Origin: a bacterium
GTDB taxonomy: Bacteria; UBA10199; 2-02-FULL-44-16; JAAZCA01
Assembly (NCBI GenBank): GCA_021810905.1
Contig: JAJZQH010000007.1
Coordinates: 70,455-134,454 of the forward strand
Reading direction: 5' to 3'
DNA: 64,000 bases
Shown: positions 1,659-21,700 of the stretch, piece by piece
How the letters are laid out: every line of letters begins with the position of its first letter
Numbering within the stretch: position 1 is the stretch's first letter
Notes under the pieces: generated by a model
Told to the model about the DNA's origin: nothing
What the model saw: the letters and a program-made list of their open reading frames with translations, nothing else
Databases searched by the model: none
Program-made: the position numbers and the translations under genes

Positions 1659-1813
1659 GCGAAAATTTCATACCTATCCAGATAACGCACCCAGCCCCGG
1701 ACGACATCCCGCAGCTTGACCGCGGGATCCAGTTGAGCCCCCTGGATTCCGACTTTCGCCGGAATGACAAACGCTTGGGTGCGTTATCTGGAGAGGCATG
1801 GAAAATTTCCCGC
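1659..1813. repeat. MITE/REP-like structured element of the 'LDSxFRxND' type
   Basis: ~35-nt terminal inverted repeats (GCGAAAATTTCATACCTATCCAGATAACGCACCCA / TGGGTGCGTTATCTGGAGAGGCATGGAAAATTTCCCGC) enclose three consecutive stem-loops: ATCCCGC..GCGGGAT, ATCCAG..CTGGAT, ATTCCG..CGGAAT. It translates as LDSDFRRNDK. Confidence 0.6.
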
Positions 1814-1870
1814 AACTTATTTCTCCTGCCGACGATAAGGGTGAGAATCCAAAATCGGCAAGGAGAGAGC

Positions 1871-3364: not shown

Positions 3365-4774
3365 TTGAGTTCTGCTTTCGACACATGGGGTTCAAGGATC
3401 GCCCTGGGCGCCACGCTCCTGGGAGGCGGGCTGGGCATAGGCATGTCCTGCGAGCAGGACGAAAGCGGCGACAACACGACAATTTCCGCCGAATCCAGGA
3501 CTGATGATCCTCCAGAATCCGTCGCTGATCCAGCCGCATCGCAAGACGTCGTCGCCGTGCAGATGCCAGAGCTCGACAAGGAGAGATCAAAAGGAATCTT
3601 TGCAATACCCGCCAGCGGTAATCCCTACGAGATCAGCAGGTACGGAAGACAGGTCCTGGCGCCTGCAACTGAGTTCTTTACGACTCCCACGAGCCTCTTC
3701 CTGCAGAGCAGGGGAAGATACCGCATGGGATACGAACATCGCGTGCGCGAAAGAGACAATGTGATGTACGGCAAGCCTGGAGAACGGGCTGCGTTCAGCC
3801 GCAAGACATATATCGGCCGATTCATGAGATGGCTATATCTTCCGAAATCGATGAGGAACAGGCCCCTGACACCCGAAGATCATGAATGGCTCCGCGCCAA
3901 TGGAGCGTATTCGCAGAGCATATCAAACCGCATCCTCATCCTCCCCTATGCAGTGAGGCTTGGCGTAAATATCTACGGTTTCACGCGGACGCAGGACGAT
4001 GGGAGAAACGGCCTGGGCCACGTCGAGACCGCAGTCATGATCACTGACACCGCTTCGATCACGAGCCACATCGTCGATCTGAGCCTCTGGTCGCGGGGGC
4101 TGGGGCAGGTGGCAGGCGCCTCGAATCCGAGCCTTGTCGAGCGAGCGCTTCAGCCTGGCCGGATAGCGCCGATGAGGCGATGGATGACGTTGGGAGGTTA
4201 TGAGGGTGCGGCTAAATCTCTCACCTTGAGCCATCGCATCAGTTTAGGAAGTAATGTGCTGATGATGGTGACCGGCGCCGTTCGTCTCTATTCTGAATAC
4301 GTAAGAATGGAACGCACCGGCGCTGAAAATCTGAGCACGCTCCTGGTAGGAGGTTTCGAATTCTTCGGTGGACTCAGCTCATGCGTCCTCATTCTCTTTC
4401 TGCTGCAGCGTGCGCGCCAACTCAAAGAATCGGCTGAAGAAGAGGCAGTCGACTATCGGAAGGTGTGCGACAGGCTCGTGGGGTTCACACCATTTCCAGG
4501 CCTGATCCAGGCATGCGTCCGTGCCCCGGGCATGGTGATGGCGTCAGCGATGATAAGCATGAATGGAGTCGCTCTCGCGAGCGCATTGGACCACATGGCT
4601 GCGGGCGTTCCCGCAAGTCACGCAGTGCTGGTTCCAGTTCTGGGGCTCGCCTCTTCTGGGCTCGCGTTGGTGTCTTCGTACATGAACACGCCCGGCAAGC
4701 TTGCCGTATCGCAGTTCGTCTTCCTCGGCAGCTTCGTTCTGTGCGGCCTGCAGAGCCTCCTCGAACTCGGATGA
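3365..4774 (+). CDS. hypothetical membrane protein (N-terminal signal-like segment, soluble domain, C-terminal multi-TM region)
   Basis: 469-aa ORF with a TTG start. Hydrophobic stretches occur at the N-terminus and across the last ~170 aa. I recognise no family motif. Confidence 0.5.
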   Translation: MSSAFDTWGSRIALGATLLGGGLGIGMSCEQDESGDNTTISAESRTDDPPESVADPAASQDVVAVQMPELDKERSKGIFAIPASGNPYEISRYGRQVLAPATEFFTTPTSLFLQSRGRYRMGYEHRVRERDNVMYGKPGERAAFSRKTYIGRFMRWLYLPKSMRNRPLTPEDHEWLRANGAYSQSISNRILILPYAVRLGVNIYGFTRTQDDGRNGLGHVETAVMITDTASITSHIVDLSLWSRGLGQVAGASNPSLVERALQPGRIAPMRRWMTLGGYEGAAKSLTLSHRISLGSNVLMMVTGAVRLYSEYVRMERTGAENLSTLLVGGFEFFGGLSSCVLILFLLQRARQLKESAEEEAVDYRKVCDRLVGFTPFPGLIQACVRAPGMVMASAMISMNGVALASALDHMAAGVPASHAVLVPVLGLASSGLALVSSYMNTPGKLAVSQFVFLGSFVLCGLQSLLELG

Positions 4775-4930
4775 AAGTCGCGCTCGCCCTGAACATCTGC
4801 ACAGATCACGCACATGCTGGGGATGTAGAATTTTCGTTCGGACTCAAGCGATCGCTTTCTTTGCATCCTTCAAAAATTTGCGGACGATGCAAAAAAAGCG
4901 AGCATCTCTGTGAGATCCGAGAGCGATTTT

Positions 4931-5509
4931 TCAAACTTGCTTTCTTTTTTTCGTCCCATGGAGAACCCCCAGGAAAAAGGCCCATGCGTTCGGGTCGCCG
5001 GCAAGAAACACGGGCTCATAAACGATGCCTCTCAAAAACCATTCTGGCGCCGCGTCCAGGTTTACGAAATCAACGTTGCGCGGAAGTTCATCCACGAGTT
5101 CCTCTACGCTTCGCTTCACCCGGAAGAACTCCACGCCGCCAAGCGGCCTCCTTCCGCGCGTAATCCCGAGATCCCAGTCTGAATACTTACGCCCTCTACC
5201 CTCAGCGCGCGATCCCAGGAGACCGACCGCGATCTCTTTGTCGAAGATCGCAAGCTTTCTGGCAACGGGCATGATCTCAGATATGCGTTCGATCTTCGAT
5301 TCGTATTCCTGGGAAAGCAGAGAGACGGGATCGGCATCGAGTGCATCGCAGATGGCATAATACGCCTCTGAAAAAGGCCCCTGTCCCTTCATGAAATGAT
5401 TGAGTGTTACGCGGTTGAATCCGTGTGCCTTGGCAAATTCCGTGAGGTGGGCGTACCCGTGGCTCAAGACGAGGCGTTTCAATTTTTCGGCATCCAGATG
5501 ATAACGCAT
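4931..5509 (-). CDS. XRE-type HTH fused to an MNT-like nucleotidyltransferase domain
   Basis: The N-terminal helix-turn-helix is LTEFAKAHGFNRVTLNHFMKG. The C-terminal half carries GSRAEGRGRKYSDWDL, the GS..G...SD.D pol-beta/MNT nucleotidyltransferase signature. Confidence 0.8.
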   Translation of the reverse strand: MRYHLDAEKLKRLVLSHGYAHLTEFAKAHGFNRVTLNHFMKGQGPFSEAYYAICDALDADPVSLLSQEYESKIERISEIMPVARKLAIFDKEIAVGLLGSRAEGRGRKYSDWDLGITRGRRPLGGVEFFRVKRSVEELVDELPRNVDFVNLDAAPEWFLRGIVYEPVFLAGDPNAWAFFLGVLHGTKKRKQV

Positions 5510-5559
5510 CGCCTTTATTTTCTCGCAAACGAAGCTTGTGTCAATTATTTTATATTTAT

Positions 5560-5575
5560 GTATATTTAAATATAC
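5560..5575. promoter_or_regulatory. perfect 16-bp palindrome GTATATTTAAATATAC in a divergent AT-rich promoter region (candidate operator)
   Basis: It lies between the divergent starts of the HTH-NTase gene (5509) and the 5658 ORF. It is the only perfect palindrome in that spacer. Confidence 0.4.
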
Positions 5576-6756: not shown

Positions 6757-6819
6757 TCATTGACAACATCAAGCGCTTGCTGCTAGTTGATTTCTGCTTT
6801 GAAAATTCGATCGCACGGC

Positions 6820-6970
6820 GTGCAAGGGAAGCGGGTGTGAATCCCGCGCGGTCGCGCCACTGTGATGGGCATGATGTCCGCCGCCTCAGTCACTGTCCTT
6901 TTGGGATGGGAAGACTTTGGCGGGAGAGATGGCCCTGAGCCAGGAAACCTTGCGCCGATGTTTTTTTCAG
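6820..6970 (+). promoter_or_regulatory. cobalamin (B12) riboswitch
   Basis: AAGGGAAGCGGGTGTGAATCCCGCGCGGTCGCGCCACTGTGA matches the conserved core. GAGCCAGGAAACCTTGCG matches the B12 box. The P1 candidate is CGGCGTGCAAGG / CCTTGCGCCG, followed by a T-run. It lies directly upstream of a TonB-dependent receptor. Confidence 0.85.
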
Positions 6971-7003
6971 CGCGTATTACTCTTCGCGTAAAAGAGGCGG
7001 CGC

Positions 7004-9043
7004 ATGTCCTTGATTTTCTGTTTTCATCCATCGGCCTTCATACATCGACAAAAGATCCTCATCACCCTCTTCTGTTGTGTCGTCGCCATTCCTGTGCAGA
7101 TGGCTGCGGGGGATTGCTTCGCTTCCGCTCGCAATGACACACTAGGCGCTACGTCTGAAGAAGCGCAGCCTGCAGATATCGGCGAGGTCGAGGTGGGCGC
7201 GTCGCGGGATCACGAATCCGCGGAAATGCCCGCTGCCTTCACAACGGTCATCAAACCCGAGCGCTTCGAACGCCGCACAAAATCCGCAGCCGAGGTGCTC
7301 TCAGAAACTGCAGGCGTGGACGTCACCACCCTCGGCGGCGAGGGGAGCCTCTCCACGGTCTCCATCCGCGGCTCTTCAGCCGAAGAGGTGGCAGTCTTCG
7401 TGGACGGGGTGCGCATCAACAGCGCGCTCTACGGCTCCGTCAATTTCGCGACCATTCCGATCGACTCGATCGAGCGCATCGAGGTGATCCGCGGCGCTGC
7501 GTCAGCACGTTTCGGCACGGACGCCATCGGCGGCGTCATCAACATCGTGACTAAGAAGGCCGGGGGCAAGCGCGCCATCGACCTCAAGCTCACCGGCGCT
7601 TCATTTGATACGCTGCACACCTCGGAATCCTGGAGCGAGCCGCATGACAAATGGTCTCTCGTGCTCGCGCACAACCACCGCTCCACCGCAGGCGACTTCA
7701 CGTTCAGGAGCGCGGGCATTTCGCTGGCCGGCGGCACGGTCGCGGACCCCAAGACATACACGCGGTTCAACAACCGCTCGGTTGCAGAGGACGTGCTCGC
7801 AAAGGGGGACGTGGATTTAACTGAGCTTATGCACCTCTCCGCATCCAACGATTTTTTCTGGACCGATGCGCAGGTGCCAACGACGGAGATCGAGACCACG
7901 CTGCTCTTTCCCGCTAACCCGCTGGAGGCGCACGAGGAGATCTTCCGCGACACCGCAGGGCTGCGCGCCGCACTCGACCGGCTCTTCGTGGACGGACTCT
8001 CTCTCAAGTCGGGCGTCAGCAACGCCTACATACGCGATCATTTCACCGACCCCTCGCCCGCGATAGGCGATCCAATAGACGTCACATCGGTGGGAGTTTC
8101 GCCCGAAGCGTATCTTGAACTCATGCACTCGGCGGACGCGGGTCCGGCGAGCTTTACGACCGTTCTCCGCTATCAGTACAGATACGATCACTCCGACGAT
8201 TCATCTCCCTATCCCACCGCCCCGCTCGCGGGCGAACACGGCAGGAGCACGAACGCGGCCTTCCTCGAAGAAGAGGTCGATCTCTTCGGCGACAAACTGA
8301 GGGTGATTCCATCGGGCCGCGTGGAGACCGCATCCGACAGGACCACGCGCGCGAGCTGGCGTGCCGGCGCCGTCGGCAGCCCCGTTGAGTGGATCGACAT
8401 CAAGGCGAACGTTGGCACCGCGTTTCGCTATCCGACTTTCATGGAGCTCTATTTCCCGGATCAAGGATATCTGCGCGGCAACCCCAACCTGAACGACGAG
8501 CGATCTTTCAACTGGGACGCCGGAGTCATTGTTCGGCCGCCTCGCTCGTCAATTGAAATTTCGTATTACCAGAACCGCATCTACAACCAGATCATGTTCG
8601 TCCCTGTATCGGCCACCACGATCCAGCCCATCAACACCGGGCGCGTGAACTCGCATGGCATCGAGGCAACGGTCACTGCCGAGCCCTGGAAATGGATGCG
8701 TCTCGATGCGAACTACACCTGGCTCGACGCGATCTTCGCCAGCAACGGGCTCAAGCTCCCGGGCAGGCCGCAGCACAAGGCCAACGCGCACCTCGAACTC
8801 AAGACGGGCTGGGCGTCGATCTTCGGAGAGGTGCAGTACGTGGGTTCGTATCCGCTCAATACCTCTAACACCGTGACCATATCGAGCCATGTTGCTGCGA
8901 ACGCGGGCACCACCATCGCCTTTGCGAAGCACTTCTTTTTTACTTTTGAAGTGAAGGACGTGAACAACGTGCAGATCTACGACGCGCGCGGGTTTCCGCT
9001 GCCGCGAAGGAGTTACTGGGTGAGCGTGGGAGCGAAAACTTAA
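7004..9043 (+). CDS. btuB: TonB-dependent outer-membrane receptor, BtuB-like
   Basis: The plug domain reads VDVTTLGGEGSLSTVSIRGSSAEEVAVFVDGVRIN...IERIEVIRGAASARFGTDAIGGVINIVTKK, followed by a long beta-barrel region. The gene is controlled by the B12 riboswitch. Confidence 0.9.
   Translation: MSLIFCFHPSAFIHRQKILITLFCCVVAIPVQMAAGDCFASARNDTLGATSEEAQPADIGEVEVGASRDHESAEMPAAFTTVIKPERFERRTKSAAEVLSETAGVDVTTLGGEGSLSTVSIRGSSAEEVAVFVDGVRINSALYGSVNFATIPIDSIERIEVIRGAASARFGTDAIGGVINIVTKKAGGKRAIDLKLTGASFDTLHTSESWSEPHDKWSLVLAHNHRSTAGDFTFRSAGISLAGGTVADPKTYTRFNNRSVAEDVLAKGDVDLTELMHLSASNDFFWTDAQVPTTEIETTLLFPANPLEAHEEIFRDTAGLRAALDRLFVDGLSLKSGVSNAYIRDHFTDPSPAIGDPIDVTSVGVSPEAYLELMHSADAGPASFTTVLRYQYRYDHSDDSSPYPTAPLAGEHGRSTNAAFLEEEVDLFGDKLRVIPSGRVETASDRTTRASWRAGAVGSPVEWIDIKANVGTAFRYPTFMELYFPDQGYLRGNPNLNDERSFNWDAGVIVRPPRSSIEISYYQNRIYNQIMFVPVSATTIQPINTGRVNSHGIEATVTAEPWKWMRLDANYTWLDAIFASNGLKLPGRPQHKANAHLELKTGWASIFGEVQYVGSYPLNTSNTVTISSHVAANAGTTIAFAKHFFFTFEVKDVNNVQIYDARGFPLPRRSYWVSVGAKT
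7108..7142. repeat. half copy of the GGATTGC...CGCTCGCAATGACAC element, inside the btuB coding sequence
   Basis: GGGGGATTGCTTCGCTTCCGCTCGCAATGACACAC matches the right half of the element at 14416-14500. It encodes GDCFASARNDT just after the predicted signal peptide. Confidence 0.7.
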
Positions 9044-9045
9044 AC

Positions 9046-9080
9046 CGTCGTTCGTGAATCGTCGTTCGTCGTTCGTGAAA
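9046..9080. repeat. tandem heptamer tract (CGTCGTT/CGTGAAT words)
   Basis: CGTCGTTCGTGAATCGTCGTTCGTCGTTCGTGAAA lies between the btuB stop and the next start. It uses the same word family as the hairpin arms at 17699, 18679, 35173 and 63199. Confidence 0.6.
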
Positions 9081-9101
9081 ACATGTAGAAGAGAGGACAT
9101 A

Positions 9102-11024
9102 ATGAAACGCATAATCACGATAGTTGCATTCATCGCCATATGCTGCAGCGCCTGTGGCAACAGCACCATCACCGGCCAGACGCCGCAGGAGTCTCAAAGC
9201 AGCACGTCGGCGTTGCGTTCATTCGCGCTGGCAAGCGACTTTCCCTCGGACGTCGTAATTCCAGATATCGAAGGGATGCGCTCGACCGCGTTCATCGTCT
9301 CTGCCGCAGATCCAGCAGGAGTTCTTGCAGTAGATATCGATGCCACCCCCTTGCAGCTCTCCGCCGCATTCAAAACCTTCACGGTGCCGAACGGCGCGGG
9401 CATACCCTCAAGGCTCGCGGTTGCAGCAAAGGACCGCGCGTTCCTGCTCACATCAAACGCCGTTATTTCGTTTAATCCCGAGAGCGGCAGCGTCATCGAC
9501 ATGCAGAGCGTCATCGCGCCGATCGCCATATCCGGTACGCACAACAATTCCGACGGCAGCCTGTCCGCTCCGACCGTGACGCCATCGTACCCCGGCGGCA
9601 TCGCGACAGCCGGGGGCAGATTGTTTGTCTCATCCGCGAATTACATCCGCACGCAGGCCCCTGCGGTCACCGCGCCCGGCATTGTTCAGGTATTCGATAT
9701 CGCATCAGACGGAACGCTCGCGCCGGCCTCGCACTTTGTGACGAGCGGATTCAATCCTACGGGGCTTGCGATCAGAAACGCCTCTGAGCTCCTGGTCCTC
9801 AACTCAGGGGTGATCGATATCGTCAATGCGCAGGGCGTAGCGCAGACCGACGCATCAATAGATGTAGTGGATCTCGATACGCTCGCCATCAAGGCAACGA
9901 TTCCCTTGGGTCCGATCGCCGCCGCGCCTTACGGTATCGCCCTCACCCTCGACGGCTCGCGCGGATTCGCAGGTTCCGCTGCGTATGGCGACGCATATGA
10001 GATCGATCTGATCAACCGCCAGGTGCTCAGAGGCAAAGACAACCCGATCGTAGTGAGCGATTCTTCAGACTATGTGTCCGCGCTAGCCCTCTCCGTGGAC
10101 GATCAGTATCTCTATGCGTCGAGTTTTGAGCAGAGCGCTGTCGTGCCGTTCGATCTCTCGGCGGCAGATCCTGCACGCGGCAATCCATTTGTCGTGGGAT
10201 TTCCCTCCGGCGTCACTGACGAAAATCCATCAGGCGCAAACACCGGCGCTGGGCCGCTGGCGGTGAGGCCGGGCTCGCGCGATATCGATTATCAGGGCGA
10301 GGACCTCTTCATCCTCACGGGTTATCCCGGAACGATGATTGCGGTAAACAGCGGAGCGCCCGCGCAGAAATATACCCAGCCAACGGACGATTCAGCGTCG
10401 CAGGATAATAGCGCCGCCCAGCCGCCTCCGGCGCCGCCTTCAGGCAGCAACGGCACGCCGTGTCAGGGTTTTGCGCAGGCGGTGAAGGGCGTCGCTTACG
10501 GAACCGGCGCCGGGTTCGGCCAGGCGTCATTTCCCGACATCGTGCTTGGAGCGCCGCGCGGCGCGGGCGAACTCAGCGGAGGCACTCACGTGCTCTCGCT
10601 GGGCAAAGGCGGTGAAATAACTCTCGACCTCGGAAATTGCCCGGCCGTCGACAAAGCCGGAGACGATTTCATCGTATTCGAAAACGCATTCTACATCGGC
10701 GGCAACCCGCTGGCGCCTTACGCTGAACCGGCAATCGTGAGCGCATCTGAAGACGGCACGACATTCGTGGACTTCGCCTGCTCATCCGCCGCCTATCCGT
10801 ATGACGGATGCGCGGGCTGGCACCCGGTCTATTCCAATCCGCAGAATGCGATCAGCCCGTTCGATCCGACTGTTGCAGGCGGAGAGGCGTATGACCTGAG
10901 CGCAATAGGACTGGCGAAGGCTCGCTACATCCGCATACGCGACGCAGGAAACGGAGGAGGCGCCGGAAGCGCCGGCTTTGACCTTGATGCAATAGCGGTG
11001 ATCAACGGAGAGATAGTAAACTAA
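9102..11024 (+). CDS. lipoprotein, beta-propeller-like repeats plus a C-terminal FIVFEN...GFDLDA domain
   Basis: Start MKRIITIVAFIAICCSAC (lipobox) follows GAGAGGA. Repeated strand-rich blades are present (GGRLFVSSANY, GFNPTGLAIRNASELLVLNSG, ASIDVVDLDTL). It is a paralog of the next gene. Confidence 0.7.
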   Translation: MKRIITIVAFIAICCSACGNSTITGQTPQESQSSTSALRSFALASDFPSDVVIPDIEGMRSTAFIVSAADPAGVLAVDIDATPLQLSAAFKTFTVPNGAGIPSRLAVAAKDRAFLLTSNAVISFNPESGSVIDMQSVIAPIAISGTHNNSDGSLSAPTVTPSYPGGIATAGGRLFVSSANYIRTQAPAVTAPGIVQVFDIASDGTLAPASHFVTSGFNPTGLAIRNASELLVLNSGVIDIVNAQGVAQTDASIDVVDLDTLAIKATIPLGPIAAAPYGIALTLDGSRGFAGSAAYGDAYEIDLINRQVLRGKDNPIVVSDSSDYVSALALSVDDQYLYASSFEQSAVVPFDLSAADPARGNPFVVGFPSGVTDENPSGANTGAGPLAVRPGSRDIDYQGEDLFILTGYPGTMIAVNSGAPAQKYTQPTDDSASQDNSAAQPPPAPPSGSNGTPCQGFAQAVKGVAYGTGAGFGQASFPDIVLGAPRGAGELSGGTHVLSLGKGGEITLDLGNCPAVDKAGDDFIVFENAFYIGGNPLAPYAEPAIVSASEDGTTFVDFACSSAAYPYDGCAGWHPVYSNPQNAISPFDPTVAGGEAYDLSAIGLAKARYIRIRDAGNGGGAGSAGFDLDAIAVINGEIVN

Positions 11025-11043
11025 CGCAACTCAGGAGGATTCT

Positions 11044-12426
11044 ATGGCAATGGTTCAGGACATCTGTGCGGGGTTGGCTATGGGAGTCGCATTGGGTTTA
11101 GGCGGATGCGACGGATCGGATGCTGCGACTAATGATCCAGTGGTCAACGGGCAGGATTCGGGCATTGATTCATCGATCGATGCAGCCGATGCGATCGCGG
11201 ACAACGACCTTGATACGGGAGTATATGTTGATGCCGAAGCCGGCGAAGACATAGGCGCCCCAGACGTATATGAAGCTGCATCGGATGCATTCGATGCGCC
11301 GATAGAGAGCGGGCCGCCCGAGACTCCAGCGTCACCTATAGTGAATTTCTACTCAGATGCACCCTGCGCGTTTCCCGCGAGCATCGCGTACGATCCCACC
11401 GCCAACGCGCTGATGATGGCGTGCGGCGGCGCGACAAACGAGCTATTCATGTCTCCTCCGCTGGGCGACAGCGGCGCCTGGTCTTCCATCGGGACGATCG
11501 GTGGATATCCGTCGTATCACCTCCCGCTCGACTCTCGCTATCATGTCGCGAACCATTCCATGCCTGACGGCGCAACGATCATCGACGCGCAGACCGGTCT
11601 TGCCACTGCAGAAGTCGCATTCTCCGCGCTCGCGCTCAAGGACGAAACAAATCAGGCTCTCGGATTTGTCCCGAACAACCCAACCGGAGCGCTGCTCGCA
11701 GGCGGAAGGTTATGCGTCGCCACGTCGAATCTCGACCACATGGATATGGATCCAGCGCTCACCACTTTTTTTCCAGGCACCGTGATCTGCATTCCCTATA
11801 ATGGAGGCGGAACACTGGATACATCGTCCGCGCGAGCGATCCATACATCCGGCGTAAACCCAACCGGCATGACGCTCATCGATGCGACTCTCAAGCCGGA
11901 TGGCACGCAGCGCTTTGCAGTGCTCTCCTCCGGAGGCTATGCGCCATCGCCCGACAAGACGGCCGCCTTCGACGTCTTCACCTGGTCTTCAGCGGCGCAA
12001 TCATTTACGCGTTCGTCAACGCCCCTTGGGCAGATCACCGCGCAGATATCGCCAGTCATGCCCATGACCGATGGAGGGCTGATATTGTTCGGCGTGCAGA
12101 AGCCCGATAACAGGTTGATGGGCATCGACGCTACGACGGGCCTGGTAAGCTTTGACCGCGAGATGCCGGACGTTCAGAATTTCATCGCGGCCGTCAATAC
12201 AAACGGACACGTAGCAGCGGCATCGGATTTTGGCGTCTTCGGCCAGGGAGGCAGCGTGCTCTTCTACGATCTGAATGCGAACGGATGGCAGGGCACACCG
12301 ATTTCTCCGCTAGAGGGCTCGGCAGGACCTGCCCTGGTCATAGGTGGCGTGCTCTATCAGACGGTCACGTCGAATGATGCTTCGAGCGGCAGCGTCTGGA
12401 CGGTCGATATGGGAGGGATGCAGTGA
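11044..12426 (+). CDS. lipoprotein, paralog of the preceding gene (acidic linker plus propeller-like body)
   Basis: Signal/lipobox is LAMGVALGLGGC. Motifs shared with the 9102 gene are GGRLCVATSNL vs GGRLFVSSANY and GVNPTGMTLI vs GFNPTGLAI. Confidence 0.7.
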   Translation: MAMVQDICAGLAMGVALGLGGCDGSDAATNDPVVNGQDSGIDSSIDAADAIADNDLDTGVYVDAEAGEDIGAPDVYEAASDAFDAPIESGPPETPASPIVNFYSDAPCAFPASIAYDPTANALMMACGGATNELFMSPPLGDSGAWSSIGTIGGYPSYHLPLDSRYHVANHSMPDGATIIDAQTGLATAEVAFSALALKDETNQALGFVPNNPTGALLAGGRLCVATSNLDHMDMDPALTTFFPGTVICIPYNGGGTLDTSSARAIHTSGVNPTGMTLIDATLKPDGTQRFAVLSSGGYAPSPDKTAAFDVFTWSSAAQSFTRSSTPLGQITAQISPVMPMTDGGLILFGVQKPDNRLMGIDATTGLVSFDREMPDVQNFIAAVNTNGHVAAASDFGVFGQGGSVLFYDLNANGWQGTPISPLEGSAGPALVIGGVLYQTVTSNDASSGSVWTVDMGGMQ

Positions 12427-13358
12427 TCACGCGCGATGCAGAGCGGTACGTCAGTACGTTGGTACGTTGGTACGTTGGCACATCAGTAAAACTGTGCGTT
12501 CTTGCCAGCGCGCTGATCTGTTGCATAATGGCAGGATCATCTGCAGCATACGCAACGGCTCCGCAGAGGGTCGTGTCGCTCAAGCCTTCGATCACCGACG
12601 TGGTCTATGCGCTGGGGCTTGGAGATCGACTGATCGGCGTGACGCGCTATTGCTTCGCGCCGGATGGCATGCGCAAACCCGAGGTCGTGGCCGACTACAC
12701 GCGGCCGTATTCCGAGCGCATCGTTGCGCTCTCGCCTGATATCGTCCTCGGTTCTATGGAGAACTCGAGCCGCAGATCGATTGAATCGCTCGAACAGACC
12801 GGAATCAGGGTGGAGCTCTTTCCATTCACCACGCTCGCCGATACGATGCAGTCGATACGAAAAATTGCCGCGGTTCTCGGCGAGCCCGCACGCGGGGAGG
12901 CTCTGGCGCGGGATATTCAAGCGAAGCTCGACGCCCTGAAAGCGCGTTGGTCCGGCAGCGCCCCATTGCGCGCGGTCGTCGTGTGGGGCACAAGGCCGCT
13001 GGTCGTGGCAGGGCCGGGCGCATACATGGACGAGCTCCTCGCGTCAGTGGGCGCGGAGAATGCGGTGCGCGCAACGAAGATCAAATACCCGCGCATCGGC
13101 CTTGAGGAGCTCATCGCCATCGACCCTGACGTGATCGTGGATCTGTCGATGGGCAGCGAGGCAGCAAAATCCGCTCAAGGCGATCGGCCGTGGAACAATG
13201 CTTCAACGCTCAAGGCAGTTCGCGAGGGGAAGGTAATAGCCATGGACGCAGGGATGTTCCGCGCCGGGCCGAGGCTTGTGGAGGGACTGACGCGCCTCGC
13301 GGAGTTGCTTCATGAAGACAAATCCCCCTCCTTTGTAAGGAGGGGTAAGGGGAGGTAG
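12423..13358 (+). CDS. btuF: ABC-transporter periplasmic binding protein, BtuF/TroA-like
   Basis: RVVSLKPSITDVVYALGLGDRLIGVT, SPDIVLG and IDPDVIVDL are typical class III (cobalamin/siderophore) binding-protein motifs. The start is uncertain: GTG 12423 overlaps the upstream stop, and later TTG codons are possible. Confidence 0.85.
   Translation: MITRDAERYVSTLVRWYVGTSVKLCVLASALICCIMAGSSAAYATAPQRVVSLKPSITDVVYALGLGDRLIGVTRYCFAPDGMRKPEVVADYTRPYSERIVALSPDIVLGSMENSSRRSIESLEQTGIRVELFPFTTLADTMQSIRKIAAVLGEPARGEALARDIQAKLDALKARWSGSAPLRAVVVWGTRPLVVAGPGAYMDELLASVGAENAVRATKIKYPRIGLEELIAIDPDVIVDLSMGSEAAKSAQGDRPWNNASTLKAVREGKVIAMDAGMFRAGPRLVEGLTRLAELLHEDKSPSFVRRGKGR
12446..12478. repeat. tandem octamer tract (GTACGTTG x3 plus one degenerate unit) inside the btuF 5' region
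   Basis: GTACGTCAGTACGTTGGTACGTTGGTACGTTGG encodes RYVSTLVRWYVG ahead of the hydrophobic signal core. Confidence 0.7.
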
Positions 13359-13402
13359 ATCCAGATCTACCCCCTCCAACTCCCCCTTACAAAGGGGGAG
13401 GG
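13324..13402. repeat. palindromic element CCCCTCCTTTGTAAGGAGGGG...GATCT...CCCCTTACAAAGGGGGAGGG (copy 1)
   Basis: This composite palindrome overlaps the btuF 3' end (encoding SPSFVRRGKGR*). The same family occurs in-frame in queG (56759-56846), with a degenerate copy at 52386-52466. Confidence 0.8.
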
Positions 13403-13409
13403 AATTATT

Positions 13410-14408
13410 ATGAAACCCTTTCTCACATACCGCCGTTGGGTCGGTGCAAATCTCTTGCTCCTCGCGCTGCTTGCGCTGGCGGCAATTGCCGCGCTCTCCA
13501 TCGGTTCAGAATCGGTGAGTCTTGGCGATGTATTCACTCCCGGCACCAGGGCGCACGCCATCGTATTCGAGTCGCGGCTTCCGAGGGTTCTGCTGGCTGC
13601 TCTCGTGGGCATAGCGCTCGCCTCATCCGGGAGCGCGTTCCAGGCCCTGCTCAGAAATCCGCTCGCGGATCCTTTCATACTGGGAGTGTCGGGCGGCGCG
13701 GCCCTCGGCGCCATAGCATCGGTGGGTTTCGGACTTTCGTTTGCAGGACAATCCGCAGCCGCGTTCGCCGGCGCCGGAGCTTCGATGCTCATGATCTTCG
13801 GACTCGCCCGCGCGCGCGGACGACTCTCGCCGACTACTCTTCTGCTCACCGGAGTCATATTCAACGCGTTCTGTTTTGCTCTCATCCTCTTCGTGAACGC
13901 CATCGTCACCATGGAGGAATCGTACCAGATCCTCTTCCTGTTGATCGGAAATCTGGAAGCGACCGGCATGCGAGTGGTGCTCATGCTCGGCGCGTTTGTA
14001 GTTACCGGCTTTGCCCTGCTCTGCGCGTGCGCGTGGCGCATGAACCTCATGGCGCTGGGCGAGGACGAGGCCATAAGTATGGGCGTGGACGTTTCGCGCC
14101 TCAAGGTCTGGGTCTTTGCCGCCGCGTCGCTCATGGTGGGCGCCGCGGTCGCCGCATCCGGGCTCATCGGCTTTGTTGGACTCTTCGTACCGCACATTGT
14201 GAGGCTTGTGGCGGGGAGCGACCACAGGCTGCTGGTGCCCGCATCCGGGCTCGCGGGAGCCGCGTTCCTGATCATGGCTGATGCTGCGGCGCGAACCATA
14301 CTCATGCACACGGGCTATGCGACCGAACTGCCGGCCGGCGTGGTAACGGCGCTCGTCGGCGCACCGATGTTTCTGCTGCTGCTGAGGAGGCAACAGACTC
14401 GCATATGA
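13410..14408 (+). CDS. btuC: FecCD-family ABC permease, BtuC-like
   Basis: 332-aa polytopic membrane protein with RLPRVLLAALVGIALASSGSAFQALLRNPLADPFILGVSGGAALG, the FecCD/BtuC signature. Confidence 0.9.
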   Translation: MKPFLTYRRWVGANLLLLALLALAAIAALSIGSESVSLGDVFTPGTRAHAIVFESRLPRVLLAALVGIALASSGSAFQALLRNPLADPFILGVSGGAALGAIASVGFGLSFAGQSAAAFAGAGASMLMIFGLARARGRLSPTTLLLTGVIFNAFCFALILFVNAIVTMEESYQILFLLIGNLEATGMRVVLMLGAFVVTGFALLCACAWRMNLMALGEDEAISMGVDVSRLKVWVFAAASLMVGAAVAASGLIGFVGLFVPHIVRLVAGSDHRLLVPASGLAGAAFLIMADAAARTILMHTGYATELPAGVVTALVGAPMFLLLLRRQQTRI

Positions 14409-14415
14409 TGCCCTG

Positions 14416-14500
14416 AAGTGTCATTGCGAGGACGCAGTCCGAAGCAATCCCACGGAGTCCTGGGGATTGCCACGCCGCTTCGCGGCTCGCAATGACACTT
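14416..14500. repeat. cruciform element GTGTCATTGCGAG...GCAATCC...GGATTGC...CTCGCAATGACAC
   Basis: The outer 13-bp and inner 7-bp inverted repeats lie in the btuC-btuD spacer. A half copy occurs at 7108-7142. Confidence 0.75.
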
Positions 14501-14515
14501 GGGCTGAGGATTTCT

Positions 14516-15295
14516 ATGTCGATTATTTTGGAAGCAAACGATGTTAGCTTTTCCTTCGGCGCCCTCAACGTGCTGCGCGGGGTGAGCGTCACCGTGTGCA
14601 AAGGCACGGTGACCGGAATCATCGGTCCCAACGGCGCTGGAAAATCCACGCTCATGCGCATTCTCGCGGGGACGCTCTCCCCTGCTTCAGGAAGCGTAAT
14701 ACTGGACGGAAAGCCTGTGGCAAGGATGCATCCTGGAGAACGCGCACGGCACATCGCGGTCGTGCCTCAGGAGACGCACATACCGTTCCCTTTCACCGCA
14801 CTCGAAATCGTGCTCATGGGCCGCGCGCCATACCTGCCCGCGTTCGGCTTTGAGTCGCGGCACGACGTAGACGTCGCAATGGCGGCGCTTAACGCCACCG
14901 ACTGCACCCATCTCGCGGGACGCGACATCGCCGAACTCTCCGGCGGCGAACGAAGACGCGTGATCATAGCGCGCGCGCTTGCTCAGGAGACCTCGATCCT
15001 CCTGCTCGATGAGCCGATGAGCTTTCTCGACCTGCGCCATTCGTCGGAACTCGCAAGGCTCCTGAGGGAGAAGGCGCGCTCCTCAAATCTCGCTTCAGTT
15101 GCGGTCATGCACGATCTCAACCTCGCGGCCGCGTTCTGCGACAGGATAATTATCCTCAAGGACGGGTCGATCTCCGCGGAAGGAACGCCCGCCGAGACGA
15201 TCTCCTCAGGCGTGATCGGCTCCGCATTCAACGTCCGCGTGAGCACCGGACGCGACCCCGCCACCGGCGCACCGTATTGCATACCTGCGCAATAG
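14516..15295 (+). CDS. btuD: ABC transporter ATP-binding protein, BtuD/FepC-like
   Basis: Walker A is GPNGAGKST, the signature is LSGGERRRV and Walker B is LLLDEP. Start is taken at ATG 14516 after TGAGGA; the ORF-track start 14492 lies inside the repeat. Confidence 0.9.
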   Translation: MSIILEANDVSFSFGALNVLRGVSVTVCKGTVTGIIGPNGAGKSTLMRILAGTLSPASGSVILDGKPVARMHPGERARHIAVVPQETHIPFPFTALEIVLMGRAPYLPAFGFESRHDVDVAMAALNATDCTHLAGRDIAELSGGERRRVIIARALAQETSILLLDEPMSFLDLRHSSELARLLREKARSSNLASVAVMHDLNLAAAFCDRIIILKDGSISAEGTPAETISSGVIGSAFNVRVSTGRDPATGAPYCIPAQ

Positions 15296-15379
15296 CAGGG
15301 ATCTCCGTGACTGCTGCGCAAAATCGAACTTTACACTCATTCGAGGCATTGCTAACTTGCGCGCGTGAAAGGGGGCCTG

Positions 15380-16255
15380 ATGGCGGCAGAGATCAGAAAG
15401 GCCGTGATTCCAGCTGGCGGTCTCGGTACGCGGTTTCTACCGGTCACAAAGTCGGTCCCAAAGGAACTTTTGCCGATAGGCAACAGGCCTACCATCCAGA
15501 TAGTGCTCGAAGAAGCCGTTGAATCGGGAATCGAAGAGATCATCCTCATCACCTCTCCGCAGAAAGCGCACATTCTGGATTTTTTCATGCGCGACACGCA
15601 CTACACGCGCGAACTCGAACAGCGCGGCAAGGGAGAGTTGTTGGGCGAGCTGCGCGAACTGCTCGAATGCGTCCGCGTCATTGAGGTTCTTCAGAATGAA
15701 GCACGCGGCCTCGGCCACGCAGTCTTCTGCGCGAAGGAAGCAGTGGGCGACGAACCGTTTGTCGTGATACTGCCCGACGTGCTGATAGCCAGCCGCGTCC
15801 CGTGCTGCCTGCAGCTGATGAACGCCTATGAGGAATGCGGATGTTCGGTGTCGGCCACGGAGCACACGCCGCGCGAGAGAATTTCGCTCTACGGAATCTA
15901 CGACGTGGCGCACAGCGAGGGCAGGCTCCACTGGGCGCGCGGGGTTGTTGAAAAACCCTCGCCAGACAAGGCGCCGTCCGATTTATCGGTAGTGGGGCGC
16001 TATCTCTTCTCGCCCGAGATCTTCGACGAACTTGCGAAGACAAAGCAGGATCGCAGCGGAGAGATCCAACTGGCCGATGCGATGAACGCCCTCGCCGCAA
16101 AGGGAAGGATGGCGGCATTTGAATACGAGGGCCGCCAGTTCGACACCGGCGACCCGATAGGGTTTCTCAAGGCGAATATCTACTACAGCTGGAATTCGGC
16201 GCCAAAGGAACTGACCGAATTCATGAACGAGATGATAAGAGGGACACCTCAATAA
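15380..16255 (+). CDS. galU: UTP--glucose-1-phosphate uridylyltransferase
   Basis: KAVIPAGGLGTRFLPVTKSVPKELLPI, LGHAV and VGRYLF are GalU hallmarks. Confidence 0.9.
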   Translation: MAAEIRKAVIPAGGLGTRFLPVTKSVPKELLPIGNRPTIQIVLEEAVESGIEEIILITSPQKAHILDFFMRDTHYTRELEQRGKGELLGELRELLECVRVIEVLQNEARGLGHAVFCAKEAVGDEPFVVILPDVLIASRVPCCLQLMNAYEECGCSVSATEHTPRERISLYGIYDVAHSEGRLHWARGVVEKPSPDKAPSDLSVVGRYLFSPEIFDELAKTKQDRSGEIQLADAMNALAAKGRMAAFEYEGRQFDTGDPIGFLKANIYYSWNSAPKELTEFMNEMIRGTPQ

Positions 16256-16263
16256 ACCTTGTT

Positions 16264-16394
16264 TTAGGGGACCTCTAAGAACCGTCCAGATGCAAGGCGC
16301 CCGACTGAGGCCGGCCGAGTCGTACTTGAAGTACGTCGCAGGCCGTGCCGATGGAGGGCAACGCAGCAGATGGGCGGTTATTAGAGGTCCCCGG
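16264..16394. repeat. 131-bp long-stem structured element (possible MITE or ncRNA)
   Basis: TTAGGGGACCTCTAAGAACCGTCC pairs with GGGCGGTTATTAGAGGTCCCCGG. The interior holds further stems (CGACT..AGTCG, CGTAC..GTACG). It lies between galU and asnS. Confidence 0.5.
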
Positions 16395-16411
16395 AGGAAA
16401 AAAGTAAAGCT

Positions 16412-17701
16412 ATGGACATCTTCATTCATGACATCGCAAAACACATCGACCACGAAATCACGGTCAAGGGCTGGGTCTACAACGCGCGCTCGTCGGGCAA
16501 GATAACGTTTTTGCAGATCCGCGACGGCTCCGGCTTCGTGCAGGGCATCGTCCACCAGCCGGACGTGTCCGCGCAGGTCTGGGACGATGCGCACCGCGCC
16601 ACGCTTGAGAGCTCGGTGATAGTCACGGGCAAGGTCGCAAAGCATCCGAAGCGGGACGAGTACGAACTCCACGTCACAGGCCTCACCCTCGTGCAGATAT
16701 CGCCAGAATACCCGATTGGAAAAAAAGAGCACGGCCCCGATTTTCTGCTCGACCAGCGCCACCTGTGGCTTCGCTCGAAGAAGCAGTGGGCGATCCAGCG
16801 CGTGCGCAACACGATCATCAACGCGACCTACGAGTGGTTCAACAACAACGGTTTCATAAAGATCGACTCCCCTATTCTCACGCCCGCTGCCTGCGAAGGG
16901 ACGTCCACGCTCTTTGAGGTCGATTACTTCGATCTCGGCAAGGCGTATCTCTCGCAGTCGGGCCAGCTCTACATCGAGGCGGCCATAATGAGCCACGGCC
17001 GCGTCTTCGACTTCGGCCCCGTCTTCCGCGCGGAGAAGAGCAAGACGCGCCGGCACCTCACGGAGTTCTGGATGATGGATGCGGAGATGGCCTTCTGCGA
17101 TCATAAATTGAATTTGGAGATCCAGGAACAGCTCATAGGGCACATCGTTGCCCGCGCGATAGAGATGAGTACGGAAGAACTGGTGATACTCGAGCGCGAT
17201 ATCGAAAAGCTCAGCAAGGCCGTCCCGCCCTTCCCGCGCATGACGCACGCGGAGGCGGTGACGAAGTTGCGCGCTATGGGCAGCGACATCCCATTTGACG
17301 ACGATCTGGGCGGAGACGACGAGACCCTGCTCACTCAGGATGCGGACAAGCCCATCTTCATCGAGAAGTATCCGGCCAAGGTGAAGGCGTTCTACATGAA
17401 GCGCGACCCGCAGAACGAGGAGCTGGCACTCTGCGCGGATATGCTGGCGCCGGAGGGATTCGGCGAGATCATCGGCGGCTCGCAGCGCGAGGACGATTAC
17501 GATACATTGATCCGCCGCATCGACGAGAACGGCCTGCCGCGCAGCGCATTCGAATGGTATCTCGATCTGAGGAAATACGGCAGCGTGCCGCACTCGGGCT
17601 TCGGCTACGGACTTGAGAGGCTCACGGGCTGGATCTGCGGCGTGCGCCACATCCGCGAGACGATCCCGTTCCCGAGGATGATAACGAGATTAACTCCGTG
17701 A
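16412..17701 (+). CDS. asnS: asparagine--tRNA ligase
   Basis: Class IIb synthetase, 429 aa. Motifs: FRAEKSKTRRHLTEFWMMDAEMAF, GGSQRE, GFGYGLERL..W..G..HIRE.IPFPR. Confidence 0.9.
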   Translation: MDIFIHDIAKHIDHEITVKGWVYNARSSGKITFLQIRDGSGFVQGIVHQPDVSAQVWDDAHRATLESSVIVTGKVAKHPKRDEYELHVTGLTLVQISPEYPIGKKEHGPDFLLDQRHLWLRSKKQWAIQRVRNTIINATYEWFNNNGFIKIDSPILTPAACEGTSTLFEVDYFDLGKAYLSQSGQLYIEAAIMSHGRVFDFGPVFRAEKSKTRRHLTEFWMMDAEMAFCDHKLNLEIQEQLIGHIVARAIEMSTEELVILERDIEKLSKAVPPFPRMTHAEAVTKLRAMGSDIPFDDDLGGDDETLLTQDADKPIFIEKYPAKVKAFYMKRDPQNEELALCADMLAPEGFGEIIGGSQREDDYDTLIRRIDENGLPRSAFEWYLDLRKYGSVPHSGFGYGLERLTGWICGVRHIRETIPFPRMITRLTP

Positions 17702-18696: not shown

Positions 18697-18776
18697 CTCG
18701 TGGATCGTGAATCGTGAAGGCCTCAAGTGCTCGGGCGGTTTTGCGATCCGCGAATCACAAATCACGATCCACGCGC
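18679..18776. repeat. heptamer-arm hairpin, type-1 loop (GAAGGCCTCAAGTGCTCGGGCGGTTTT)
   Basis: Arms are GGTGGATCGTGGTTCGTGACTCGTGGATCGTGAATCGTGAAGG and TTTTGCGATCCGCGAATCACAAATCACGATCCACGCG. They overlap the 3' ends of both convergent genes, and both proteins end in RGS*. Confidence 0.75.
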
Positions 18777-21700
18777 CTTTTTCATCACCTTGTAAAAATA
18801 TCCCTGGCTCACGCGCAGATTGGCGATTGCGGCGGTAGGCTTGTTGCCTGACGCCTGCAGCGCAGCTGCAAAGACAAGCGGGAGATATTCGTCAAGCTTG
18901 GCGCCTCGCTCGTAGACGAACGCGCCGCGATAGGAATCGGACTTTCGATCCTCCAAACCGTATTCCTTGATTCGACTGTATAGAGTTGTTACGGCGATAC
19001 CCAGTTCGACCGCTGCGGGCCGCGCCTTGAATCCGTTCGCTTCGTAGCACTTGGCCATGATCACGCGCTCGTAATCGCGCCACGATTTACGCGCATCATA
19101 TTCGTTATATTCGTCGATGCGCGCTAGCGGCGCCGCTGTTTCTCCGCCGCGAGCAGGCGCCGCATCCAAAGGCCATTCCTTTCGTCGTTCCTTCGCAGGG
19201 CGCTGCGGCGCAATGGACGCTCGCGCCAACGGATGGTTGTCCGGTATCGCGCGCTCGTCTATCACATCCCCTTCCGATAGCGCGCAGCATACCTGCATCA
19301 GATTCTGCAGCTCGCGCACGTTGCCCGGCCAGTCGTAAGAGAGCAGGCGCCGCATGAACCTCGGGTGCACTTCGAGGCCTCGGCCCGGCGCGGTTTCGGC
19401 TATAAATCTCACGGCGAGTTCCGCGATATCCTCGGGTCTCTCTCGCAGCGGCGGCACCTCTATCTTTATCTGGCATATTCGATAATAGAGGTCTTCGCGA
19501 AATCCCCCTGACTGAACCATCTCTTCCACGTCCTGGTTGGACGCGGTTATCACGCGCAGATCCACGTTCACGGGTTTGGTGTCGCCGATGCGCGTGCATT
19601 CTCGTTCCTGAAGCACGCGAAGCAGTTTCACCTGAAGTTCGGGCGCAAGATCGCTCACCTCGTCCAGAAAGAGCGTGCCGCCGTTCGATTCCTCTATGAG
19701 GCCGCGCTTGTCTCGCGTGGCGCCGGTGAATGCCCCTGCCTTGTAGCCGAAGAGCTCCGATTCTATGAGCGTCGCCGGGATGGCGCCGCAGTTTATCGCC
19801 ACGAATTTTCCCAGGCGGCGCTTTGCGTGGTTCGCGTGCAGCGCCCTGGCAATCAATTCTTTGCCGGAGCCCGATTCTCCGCAGATGAAGACCGACAGAT
19901 CCGTATCAGCGATCTTGTCCAGCGTCCTGAATATCCTCTGCATCGCGGGGCTTCTGCCGGCAATCGCTCCATAGTCGAATTTGAATCCGGCAGGCTCGCG
20001 GCCCAGAAGCGCCTCATATCGCTCGGCGCGGCGCGACGCATCCGCCAGCTCGCCGGAGAGCGTATTCTGTCTTTGCGCCGATGCAGCGAGCAGCTTCGCC
20101 GTCTCTATGGCGAGTCCAACCTGATCGGTGAACGCGTCGAGCAGCGTCATATCCGCGTGCGAGAACGCACCAACGTGGAAGCGGTTTTCAAGATAGAGGA
20201 CTCCGATTATCATCTTTCTCGCGCGCACCGGAAGACATAATATTGAACGCAGGGAATGAACTGCGACCGATTCTTCTTTTGAGAAGCGCTCATCCGTCAC
20301 GGCATCGTCCGTTCTTATCGGAAATCCTCCTTCGAGCACCCGCCTTGCGACCGTGCGGCTGAACGCCAGCTCGCCCTCGCGCGATTCCATGTTCCTCTGG
20401 CACGCGGAAGTTATATCCCCGTCGTCGCCCGTAAGCAGGATTGCGCCCGCCTCGGCTCCCGTGAACTCAAGTGCGTAGAAGAGCACCGTCTTGAGCACGT
20501 AGTCCAGATCGCTCTCGGCCGCTATGAGTTTGTTTATCTCAAGAATCCTGCGATAGCCGGAAGACGTATCCTGCGTTACGGGTTGAACCTGCATCGGCTG
20601 AGAAGGAGCGGTTTCGCCGGGAGCCTCCGCCCGGGAAATTGCAGCGGAAAGAGCAGCGTCGGTTTTGGAACCTATGCGCCCCCTGAGTTCTTCGAGCGCC
20701 CCCTTTTCAGCGCTGCTCGATGCGAGCGGTTCCAGCATGGAGATGATGTCCGCGAGCTCGCCCTTGCGCTTCTGCTCATGCGCCACTTCCGCGAGCGCCG
20801 TCATGATCCAGAAGCGCTGCGACGAGGCCTGTTGAACGCGCGACGCGATACCGCGCGCCTCCTCCAGCCTCTCGCGCGCCTCGTCGTATCTTCCGCCCCG
20901 CCGCGCGATGTCGCCCAGCTCCAACAGGCCCCTTGAGAGCGCGGCCCAGTCCGCGGCCCCCTTGGACGGCATGCTCCTCAGGTACTCCACCGCGGGAACG
21001 AGATGATCGAGCGCCGCCTCTATCCTTTCGCGCGCGGCCTCAACTATGCCCATGTTGATCGCGATTGCGGCGCCGCCCCGCATGTCGCCGATCATCTCGT
21101 GCAGGGCCATTCCGCGCTCGTAAAACACGACGCACTGATCGGCATCTCCGCTGATCTGGCAGGCGTTGCCGAGCCCGTTGTAGGCGCGCAGCATGAGCTC
21201 CGTGTTATGCGATCTGCGGCAGACCTCTATGCACCGCTGATATTCCTCGACTGCCGCACCGTATTCTCCCTTCGCCTGTGCGAGTTGGGCGAGATTGTAA
21301 TGCGCCCTGCCGAGCAGGAGGTCGTCGCCCATATTCTGCGCCTTCGTGAGATCTTCCGCCAGAATCTCACCCGCAGCGGAAATCTCGCCGCGCGCTACAA
21401 GCACTATTCCAAGGTCATTGTTTGTAACGGGCCTTGCATCCGGAGGGAGATTTGCCGCAGCAATGCGCGTCTTTGAAAATATCTCCTTCGCCTCGTCGAG
21501 CCTGCCTTCGAGGTAATGGATGCTGCCTATAAAATTTTCTATGGAGATCTCGCGCGATCTGTCTCCTCCCGCCTGATTGAGCGCCGCGCCCGCGTCGTGC
21601 AGTGCAGCCCTCGCGCGGTCCATCTCGGCCAGCTTGATGTACGTGCCACCCAGTCGGATGAGCACTTCGGCCCGCCACCTTGCCATCGCATCGCTCTGCG

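Follow-up and report, generated by a model that had tools for sequence, protein, structure and literature searches.

Organization of the locus

We analysed a window of 64,000 nucleotides (the whole stretch of DNA; contig JAJZQH010000007.1, positions 70,455 to 134,454 of the forward strand) from a bacterium of the lineage UBA10199. It carries a cobalamin riboswitch followed by six genes, which we interpret as a vitamin B12 uptake operon with two lipoproteins, Lip1 and Lip2, that probably take part in capturing the corrinoid. The evidence is computational throughout. The riboswitch aptamer is located at positions 6794–6970 on the plus strand and is a full-length match to the Rfam model RF00174 (79.7 bits, E 5.4e-18; gathering threshold 31.5); with a covariance model built in this analysis (R1) it reaches 136.7 bits. 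A first-pass annotation of the sequence had recognized the riboswitch but let the locus begin at position 6820, about 26 nt too late. Past the end of the aptamer, 33 bases further on, begins the first of six co-directional open reading frames (ORFs) on the plus strand. These code for a TonB-dependent outer-membrane receptor resembling BtuB (7004–9043), the 640-aa lipoprotein Lip1 (9102–11024), the 460-aa lipoprotein Lip2 (11044–12426), a BtuF-like periplasmic binding protein (12423–13358), a BtuC-like permease of the FecCD family (13410–14408), and a BtuD-like ABC ATPase (14492–15295). The spacing of the genes ranges from a 4-nt overlap to 83 nt, and a simple terminator scan of the plus strand within the operon gave nothing convincing. 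We infer that the six genes are co-transcribed as a single operon. The tightly spaced gene series as such had already been described in the first-pass annotation and is confirmed by the ORFs and by the family matches given below.

Judged from the sequence and from the minimum free energy (MFE) fold, the nucleotides 6950–7003 (plus strand) are the putative expression platform of the riboswitch. The 3′ end of the aptamer (GCGCCG) is complementary to the sequence CGGCGC directly 5′ of the ATG, and a U-rich stretch (CUCUU) is complementary to the ribosome-binding site AAGAGG. These pairings around the start codon would fit a translational off-switch. A helix sequestering the ribosome-binding site is plausible but statistically not distinctive, as the MFE fold (−30.4 kcal/mol, z −1.6) is not significant on its own.

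The receptor has the Pfam domains Plug (E 4.9e-24) and TonB barrel (E 1.4e-42). Its top NCBIfam match is TIGR01779 (TonB-B12) with 186.6 bits, which is below the equivalog cut-off of 599.7, and the receptor is therefore not a BtuB equivalog according to the models TIGR01779/NF007926; we assign it to B12 because of the riboswitch. The three distal genes make up an importer of type II (BtuFCD-type), again without reaching the cut-offs of the B12 equivalogs. The binding protein matches Peripla_BP_2 (4e-30) and has BtuF (NF002894, 116 bits, under the cut-off) as its top NCBIfam model, and the permease matches FecCD (8.7e-81) with BtuC (NF007081, 247 bits, under the cut-off) as its top model. The ATPase matches ABC_tran (2.6e-32) and obtains 255.6 bits with the NCBIfam model of the corrinoid ABC ATPase.

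The lipoproteins Lip1 and Lip2

The lipobox cysteines, C18 in Lip1 and C22 in Lip2, are invariant among the homologs which a word-indexed search retrieved (58 for Lip1 and 23 for Lip2). All of these homologs are unnamed proteins from metagenome-assembled genomes that are labelled Deltaproteobacteria, Pseudomonadota, or just "bacterium". AlphaFold2 models were built from the homolog alignments of each lipoprotein. In the model of Lip1 (pLDDT 87.8) an all-beta propeller (residues ~38–415, nt ~9213–10346) is followed by a linker of low confidence (residues 426–436) and by a separate, confidently folded beta domain (residues ~445–640). We refer to the latter as the C-terminal domain (CTD; ~195 aa, residues ~446–640, nt ~10437–11021). 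The model of Lip2 (pLDDT 83.0) is disordered over residues 1–90; an Asp-rich tether (residues ~23–95) leads to a propeller of the seven-blade type (residues ~96–460). In both models the propeller region contains about 28–29 strands, and the closest structures are seven-bladed propellers.

Lip1 and Lip2 are related to each other by BLASTP (E 1e-6) and by profile–profile alignment with hhalign (97.7%, E 1.9e-12, 213 columns). Thus, the first-pass annotation was right in regarding them as paralogs with propeller-like bodies, and also in ascribing to Lip1 a distinct C-terminal domain (FIVFEN...GFDLDA). The shared motifs on which it had relied (GGRLFVSSANY/GGRLCVATSNL and GFNPTGLAI/GVNPTGMTLI) do lie inside the real Lip1–Lip2 alignment, but they mark conservation between the two proteins and not a repeat present in each blade. 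Pfam gave no match for Lip1 or Lip2, and NCBIfam none for Lip2. Across 37 members of the Lip1 family the Pfam search returned sub-threshold propeller noise only, with weak matches to Lactonase and SBP56, and among the 58 Lip1 homologs no Pfam domain was found on the propeller or on the CTD. The CTD is the most informative part.

Structural and sequence affinities

The best match of Lip1 in the PDB, as found with Foldseek, is BtuG1 (8blw_B, E 5.7e-14), with an alignment of 704 columns over nearly the full lengths of both proteins. BtuG1 is four orders of magnitude ahead of the second match (E 4.6e-10), after which a long tail of generic propellers follows. BtuG1 consists of a BtuG propeller and a C-terminal extension of ~250 residues which is homologous to the B12-binding protein BtuH2 (PMC10404256), and thus Lip1 shares its two-domain layout. 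As the propeller-only chains of BtuG2 and BtuG3 are absent from the 50 matches listed for Lip1, the surplus score of BtuG1 most likely stems from an alignment of the CTD with the BtuH domain. This correspondence is suggestive and was seen in a model-based alignment of whole chains. The best Foldseek match of Lip2 is YncE of E. coli (E 4.7e-11).

On the level of sequence, phmmer searches with Lip1 and Lip2 against all PDB sequences found no relative. A propeller-dominated profile, used for an exhaustive HMM search, gave 137 representative clusters with E ≤ 1e-30 and 374 clusters with E ≤ 1e-10, and the propeller family is thus far bigger than the word-indexed search implied. A broadened propeller profile made from 48 diverse members matches the archaeal YVTN-repeat protein 1L0Q (E 7.3e-16, 4 repeat matches) and in addition hydrazine synthase beta, YbhE, and YncE (1.8e-5). 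The propellers of Lip1 and Lip2 are therefore, by sequence, of the YVTN/YncE type; among solved structures, significant sequence-profile similarity is restricted to propellers of this type (1L0Q, 3VGZ). None of these is a lipoprotein from a B12 operon, and they have either other functions or none known.

Some of the lactonase/YbhE-type and hydrazine-synthase-type YVTN propellers which the broadened profile detects are catalytic. Together with the weak Lactonase and SBP56 matches this could indicate that the propellers are enzymes or processing factors acting on corrinoids or on their carriers, for example by freeing B12 from environmental binding proteins or by remodelling incomplete corrinoids, and are not passive binders. 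However, these matches concern the fold and the repeat, no catalytic motif was identified, and the invariant residues are chiefly Gly, Pro, Asn, and Asp, as is typical of structural turns. The fusion with a jelly-roll-like binding domain and the strict adjacency to the receptor also favour binding and hand-over, so that we consider an enzymatic role very unlikely.

Genomic context of the propeller family

The gene neighbourhood of the propellers was compared in 12 distinct loci (the window, L001, L002, L004, L005, L007, L008, L012, L042, L067, L092, and L093), whose receptors are between 69% and 28% identical to the receptor of the window. A TonB receptor is encoded inside the same gene cluster in all 12 loci, in most cases directly upstream of the propeller. 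In L007, L092, and L093 the contig ends inside or before the first gene. The nine loci with an intact 5′ end (the window, L001, L002, L004, L005, L008, L012, L042, and L067) all have an RF00174 riboswitch 5′ of the receptor. The association with cobalamin riboswitches and TonB receptors, which the first-pass annotation would have expected to see elsewhere, is thus a regular trait of the family.

A further link to B12 comes from L092, where the first, truncated gene codes for a DUF4465 protein (Pfam E 6.5e-45). For DUF4465 proteins from different phyla, binding of B12 has been demonstrated by experiment (PMC13398666). The variant cluster found in L092 (1–5373) and L007 (2–4108) comprises, in this order, a DUF4465 protein with PEP-CTERM, a CTD-family protein with a PEP-CTERM-like tail, a TonB receptor, and a propeller of 531–534 aa. 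Anchoring in this variant would be by PEP-CTERM sorting instead of lipidation.

Two other loci are of interest for their additional genes. The Lip1-type locus L004 lacks btuFCD; the same strand carries, ~2.4 kb further downstream (11780–12888), genes for a DUF6580 membrane protein and for a protein with a TonB C-terminal domain, which might form an alternative inner-membrane route. L008 has at 13537–16519 a second cobalamin riboswitch (63.7 bits) followed by two secreted paralogs of 449 and 427 aa that are 59% identical. Each of the two has a C-terminal tail composed of a hydrophobic stretch plus arginines, and a thrombospondin type 3 repeat is found in one of them. By BLASTP they are unrelated to Lip1, Lip2, and the CTD and represent further unannotated proteins of the B12 regulon.

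The CTD is a mobile, riboswitch-linked domain

The CTD occurs in several arrangements. It is fused to the propeller in the window, L001, L002, L004, L008, and L012, and L008 has an additional copy in the gene following the fused protein. In L005 the CTD is a separate gene (262 aa) directly after a propeller-only protein, in L042 and L067 a separate CTD gene sits between the receptor and the propeller gene, and in L092 and its ortholog L007 the CTD protein with the PEP-CTERM-like tail is encoded upstream of the receptor.

The only curated model that touches the CTD is NCBIfam NF033170 (LIC_13355 of Leptospira), which covers ~80–100 residues with E 5e-9 to 1.5e-14; the scores of 28–54 bits against a cut-off of 120 bits point to a related domain and not to membership in this family. 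LIC_13355 is likewise an outer-membrane lipoprotein. It has been described as an adhesin (PMC11891782) and is not known to be linked to a riboswitch. We also considered that LIC_13355 itself is riboswitch-controlled and rejected this, as the reported riboswitches of L. interrogans are located elsewhere; a literature search for LIC_13355 together with B12 gave nothing relevant. DUF4465 was another candidate family for the CTD. The Pfam model PF14717 does not match Lip1, the CTD, or the standalone CTD relatives, and hhalign gives a probability of 0.1%, so that the CTD constitutes a separate family.

A profile search with the CTD retrieved more than 3,671 clusters at 90% identity, mostly proteins of 220–380 aa, a few of which are named "cell surface protein". 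With one genome per species scanned, relatives are present in at least 380 species. Three standalone CTD proteins that we read are lipoproteins with flexible low-complexity tethers of ~50 residues. We measured the riboswitch linkage in the best 80 CTD loci of these species genomes, which are mainly from Myxococcota (Cystobacter, Sorangium, Corallococcus, Myxococcus, Pyxidicoccus, Archangium, Labilithrix, Polyangiaceae, and Bradymonadales). A covariance model derived from nine Rfam-confirmed riboswitches had 63 matches in these loci. A riboswitch on the same strand is found upstream of the CTD in 59 of the 80 loci (in 20 within 500 nt and in 52 within 2 kb); other positions are rare (one downstream on the same strand and two on the opposite strand). 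Of the 21 riboswitch-negative loci, nine carry less than 1.5 kb of upstream sequence. In a cross-check with RF00174, 12 of 13 positives were confirmed, including the four weakest and one of the 12 under permissive filters; the thirteenth scored 26 bits. Three out of three negatives agreed as well, and three further standalone CTD members, which were looked up independently, gave the same picture. The linkage is far beyond chance and indicates that the CTD by itself belongs to the B12 regulon.

At the locus of Cystobacter fuscus (L021, 3229–6058) the riboswitch is followed by a 426-aa lipoprotein of unknown family, a 232-aa CTD lipoprotein (4872–5570), and an ORF whose product has a Rieske-like CxH...CPCHG motif. 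The distance of ~1.3–1.8 kb between riboswitch and CTD in many loci suggests that such an upstream partner gene is common in Myxococcota. We asked whether this 426-aa lipoprotein, or the 409-aa lipoprotein encoded after the Lip1 homolog of L004, is a relative of Lip1 or Lip2; hhalign revealed no relationship for either of them, and propellers of the Lip2 type thus appear confined to a close lineage.

Proposed function of the operon

On balance we favour the interpretation that the locus is a corrinoid-repressed B12 uptake operon in which Lip1 and Lip2 capture corrinoid at the outer membrane and feed it to the receptor. When corrinoid is scarce, the riboswitch would permit expression of the operon, and Lip1 and Lip2 would become lipid-anchored at the outer membrane. 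The propeller of Lip1 would be positioned on the TonB-dependent receptor or beside it, in the way BtuG is on BtuB, and its CTD would bind corrinoid and thereby offer an extra site for capture or hand-over, like the BtuH domain of BtuG1. Lip2, the tethered paralogous propeller, would be a second binder or an accessory protein. The corrinoid would then pass through the receptor to BtuF and further to BtuCD. We infer that corrinoid is bound, that the lipoproteins are exposed at the surface, that the receptor is contacted or capped, and that Lip1 and Lip2 divide the work. That the two lipoproteins could be corrinoid-capture proteins analogous to BtuG in a different lineage and possibly a different family had been put forward in the first-pass annotation; the linkage to riboswitch and receptor and the BtuG1-like layout speak in favour of it.

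Several observations weigh against this interpretation. The alignment of Lip1 with BtuG1, which is one of whole chains, has a low TM-score of 0.34 and an RMSD of 17 Å. For Lip2, BtuG2 and BtuG3 rank 22–42 among WD40-type and generic propellers, that is, the similarity is non-specific. When profiles of full-length Lip1, of the CTD, and of the broadened propeller family were searched against the PDB chains, which include BtuG1–3, neither BtuG nor BtuH was among the matches listed; the CTD and full-length profiles gave no BtuH match at E ≤ 10 in the PDB including 7BIZ and 8BLW. Homology to BT1490, BT1954, or BT2095, by which the BtuG family is delimited (BLASTP criterion, Wexler 2018), was not found in these searches of the PDB with single sequences and profiles. 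Lip1 and Lip2 are thus of a different sequence family, as the first-pass annotation had guessed, and the functional analogy with BtuG is independent of membership in the BtuG family. Three further adverse points are the residue at position +2 after the lipid cysteine of Lip2, the lack of a known route by which lipoproteins of this lineage reach the surface, and the score of the ATPase with a heme transporter model.

The first two of these points concern the location of the lipoproteins. The +2 residue of Lip2 is Asp, which is not conserved within the Lip2 family; in E. coli Asp at +2 causes retention at the inner membrane. Outside Bacteroidota and spirochaetes, lipoproteins of the outer membrane are oriented to the periplasm by default. 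The export signal of Bacteroidota is inapplicable here, and we identified no surface-export signal or dedicated exporter. Lip1 and Lip2 could therefore be proteins of the B12 regulon that are turned towards the periplasm, as lipoproteins of the inner leaflet of the outer membrane which pass the corrinoid from the receptor to BtuF, or which stabilise the receptor or regulate it, and do not capture corrinoid outside the cell. YncE, to which Lip2 is structurally most similar, is a periplasmic propeller, and the long disordered tether of Lip2 could span the periplasm equally well as project outward. On the other hand, the operon already codes for a dedicated periplasmic binder, the BtuF-like protein, and the nearest structural analogue, BtuG1, is surface-exposed. 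Moreover, CTD relatives with PEP-CTERM-type tails are encoded beside the PEP-CTERM DUF4465 protein, and both are features of exported surface proteins. We regard a periplasmic orientation as rather unlikely; such a periplasmic hand-over or receptor stabilisation is nonetheless the main rival to capture at the surface, as enzymatic and non-B12 roles are much less likely because of the riboswitch statistics and the DUF4465 neighbour.

The third point raises the question of the substrate. The ATPase clears the equivalog cut-off of the NCBIfam heme ABC ATPase (264.4 vs 261 bits), and an automatic annotation would probably mislabel 14492–15295 as a component of a heme transporter. As the receptor and the permease stay below the BtuB and BtuC equivalog cut-offs, one could imagine that heme, a siderophore, or another metal chelate is what the locus imports and that its lipoproteins are hemophore- or adhesin-like surface proteins unrelated to B12. 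The Leptospira relative of the CTD, LIC_13355, would fit this, being a reported binder of laminin and plasminogen (PMC11891782) at no reported cobalamin riboswitch. Yet a high-scoring cobalamin riboswitch is located directly upstream, in the window as well as in all relatives whose 5′ end is intact, the top family matches of the receptor, BtuF, and BtuC are those for B12, and both the DUF4465 neighbour in L092 and the riboswitches at 59 of 80 CTD loci argue for B12. We consider import of such other chelates highly improbable and retain the capture of corrinoid as the preferred explanation.

Comparison with known systems

A close parallel is the BtuB1–BtuG1 system of B. thetaiotaomicron (BtuGH, 8BLW). 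There, too, a riboswitch-controlled receptor of the BtuB type is directly followed by a lipoprotein made up of a propeller of the seven-blade type with a beta domain at its C-terminus, the locus also includes BtuFCD, and propeller and accessory domain are either fused (BtuG1) or separate neighbours (BtuG2 and BtuH2). In contrast, the propellers of the window are without detectable sequence homology to BtuG1, belong to the YVTN/YncE type, and occur two in tandem, and the host does not belong to Bacteroidota. For the proteins of the window, binding of B12 and capping of the receptor are predictions. A second parallel is the pair BtuK1/BtuK2, also from B. thetaiotaomicron, which are two adjacent paralogous lipoproteins with seven-bladed propellers under a cobalamin riboswitch. 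Of the two only BtuK1 binds B12 (PMC12751083, PMC13616437), and this provides a precedent for a division of labour between Lip1 and Lip2. Unlike Lip1 and Lip2, however, the BtuK proteins have an N-terminal PKD domain and are encoded upstream of btuB; we liken them by their published description. Finally, the DUF4465/BtuJ proteins are small secreted or lipid-anchored B12 binders with a beta-sandwich (beta-jellyroll) fold in B12 riboswitch regulons of several phyla, and in L092 one of them is found beside CTD and propeller, but as stated above the CTD is a family apart.

BtuG has been reported as exclusive to Bacteroidetes (PMC6143338) and BtuH as essentially confined to Bacteroidota plus three Firmicutes. 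In the searchable literature we found no BtuG- or BtuH-like proteins elsewhere, no account of the CTD family, and no report of myxobacteria with a B12 riboswitch regulon to which the CTD belongs. Lipoprotein-assisted capture of B12 at a TonB receptor is known, and what would be new is that it also operates outside Bacteroidota, through propellers unrelated in sequence and a riboswitch-linked domain family not described before. We see even chances for the broader proposal that extracellular capture of B12 by lipoproteins extends to Myxococcota and allied uncultured lineages, with independent YVTN-type propellers and an unrecognised corrinoid-binding beta domain (distantly LIC_13355-like and with a BtuH-like fold), and that this domain is present in hundreds of species as a tethered lipoprotein under riboswitch control.

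Competition for corrinoids shapes microbial communities, and accessory capture proteins (BtuG, BtuH, and BtuK) have so far been described almost only from gut Bacteroidota. If corrinoid binding holds true, the strategy of combining a receptor with lipoproteins would be widespread in soil and groundwater bacteria including the predatory Myxococcota, and a large unannotated family would gain a function. It would also supply new B12-binding scaffolds; BtuG is already in use as a B12 "sponge". For the LIC_13355 family of Leptospira, described so far only as an adhesin, a testable lead would result, although we do not claim a function for LIC_13355.

Neighbouring genes and further observations

On the 3′ side the operon is followed by genes for a GalU-like nucleotidyltransferase and asparaginyl-tRNA synthetase (15365–17701 in the window). 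The same two genes are found at this place in L001, L002, and even in the distant L004. The genes on the 5′ side vary; L001 and L002 have smpB, tmRNA, and a methyltransferase gene there. As the downstream but not the upstream neighbours are kept, the B12 operon occupies a conserved chromosomal position in this lineage.

In L002 (6290–6848) the tmRNA gene (107 bits) directly abuts with its 3′ end a match to the Rfam group I intron (53.9 bits, gathering threshold 50), whereas the syntenic tmRNA of L001 is without such a match. The ssrA gene of L002 may therefore be interrupted or flanked by an intron.

Elsewhere in the window, the large ORFs without a Pfam match include 1733–3145, 3365–4774, 24108–25721, and 42516–45974, and the minus strand carries at 18762–23825 a gene for a 1,687-aa fusion protein which combines a Ser/Thr kinase, TPR repeats, a GAF domain, and a sigma-54 activator of the AAA+ type.

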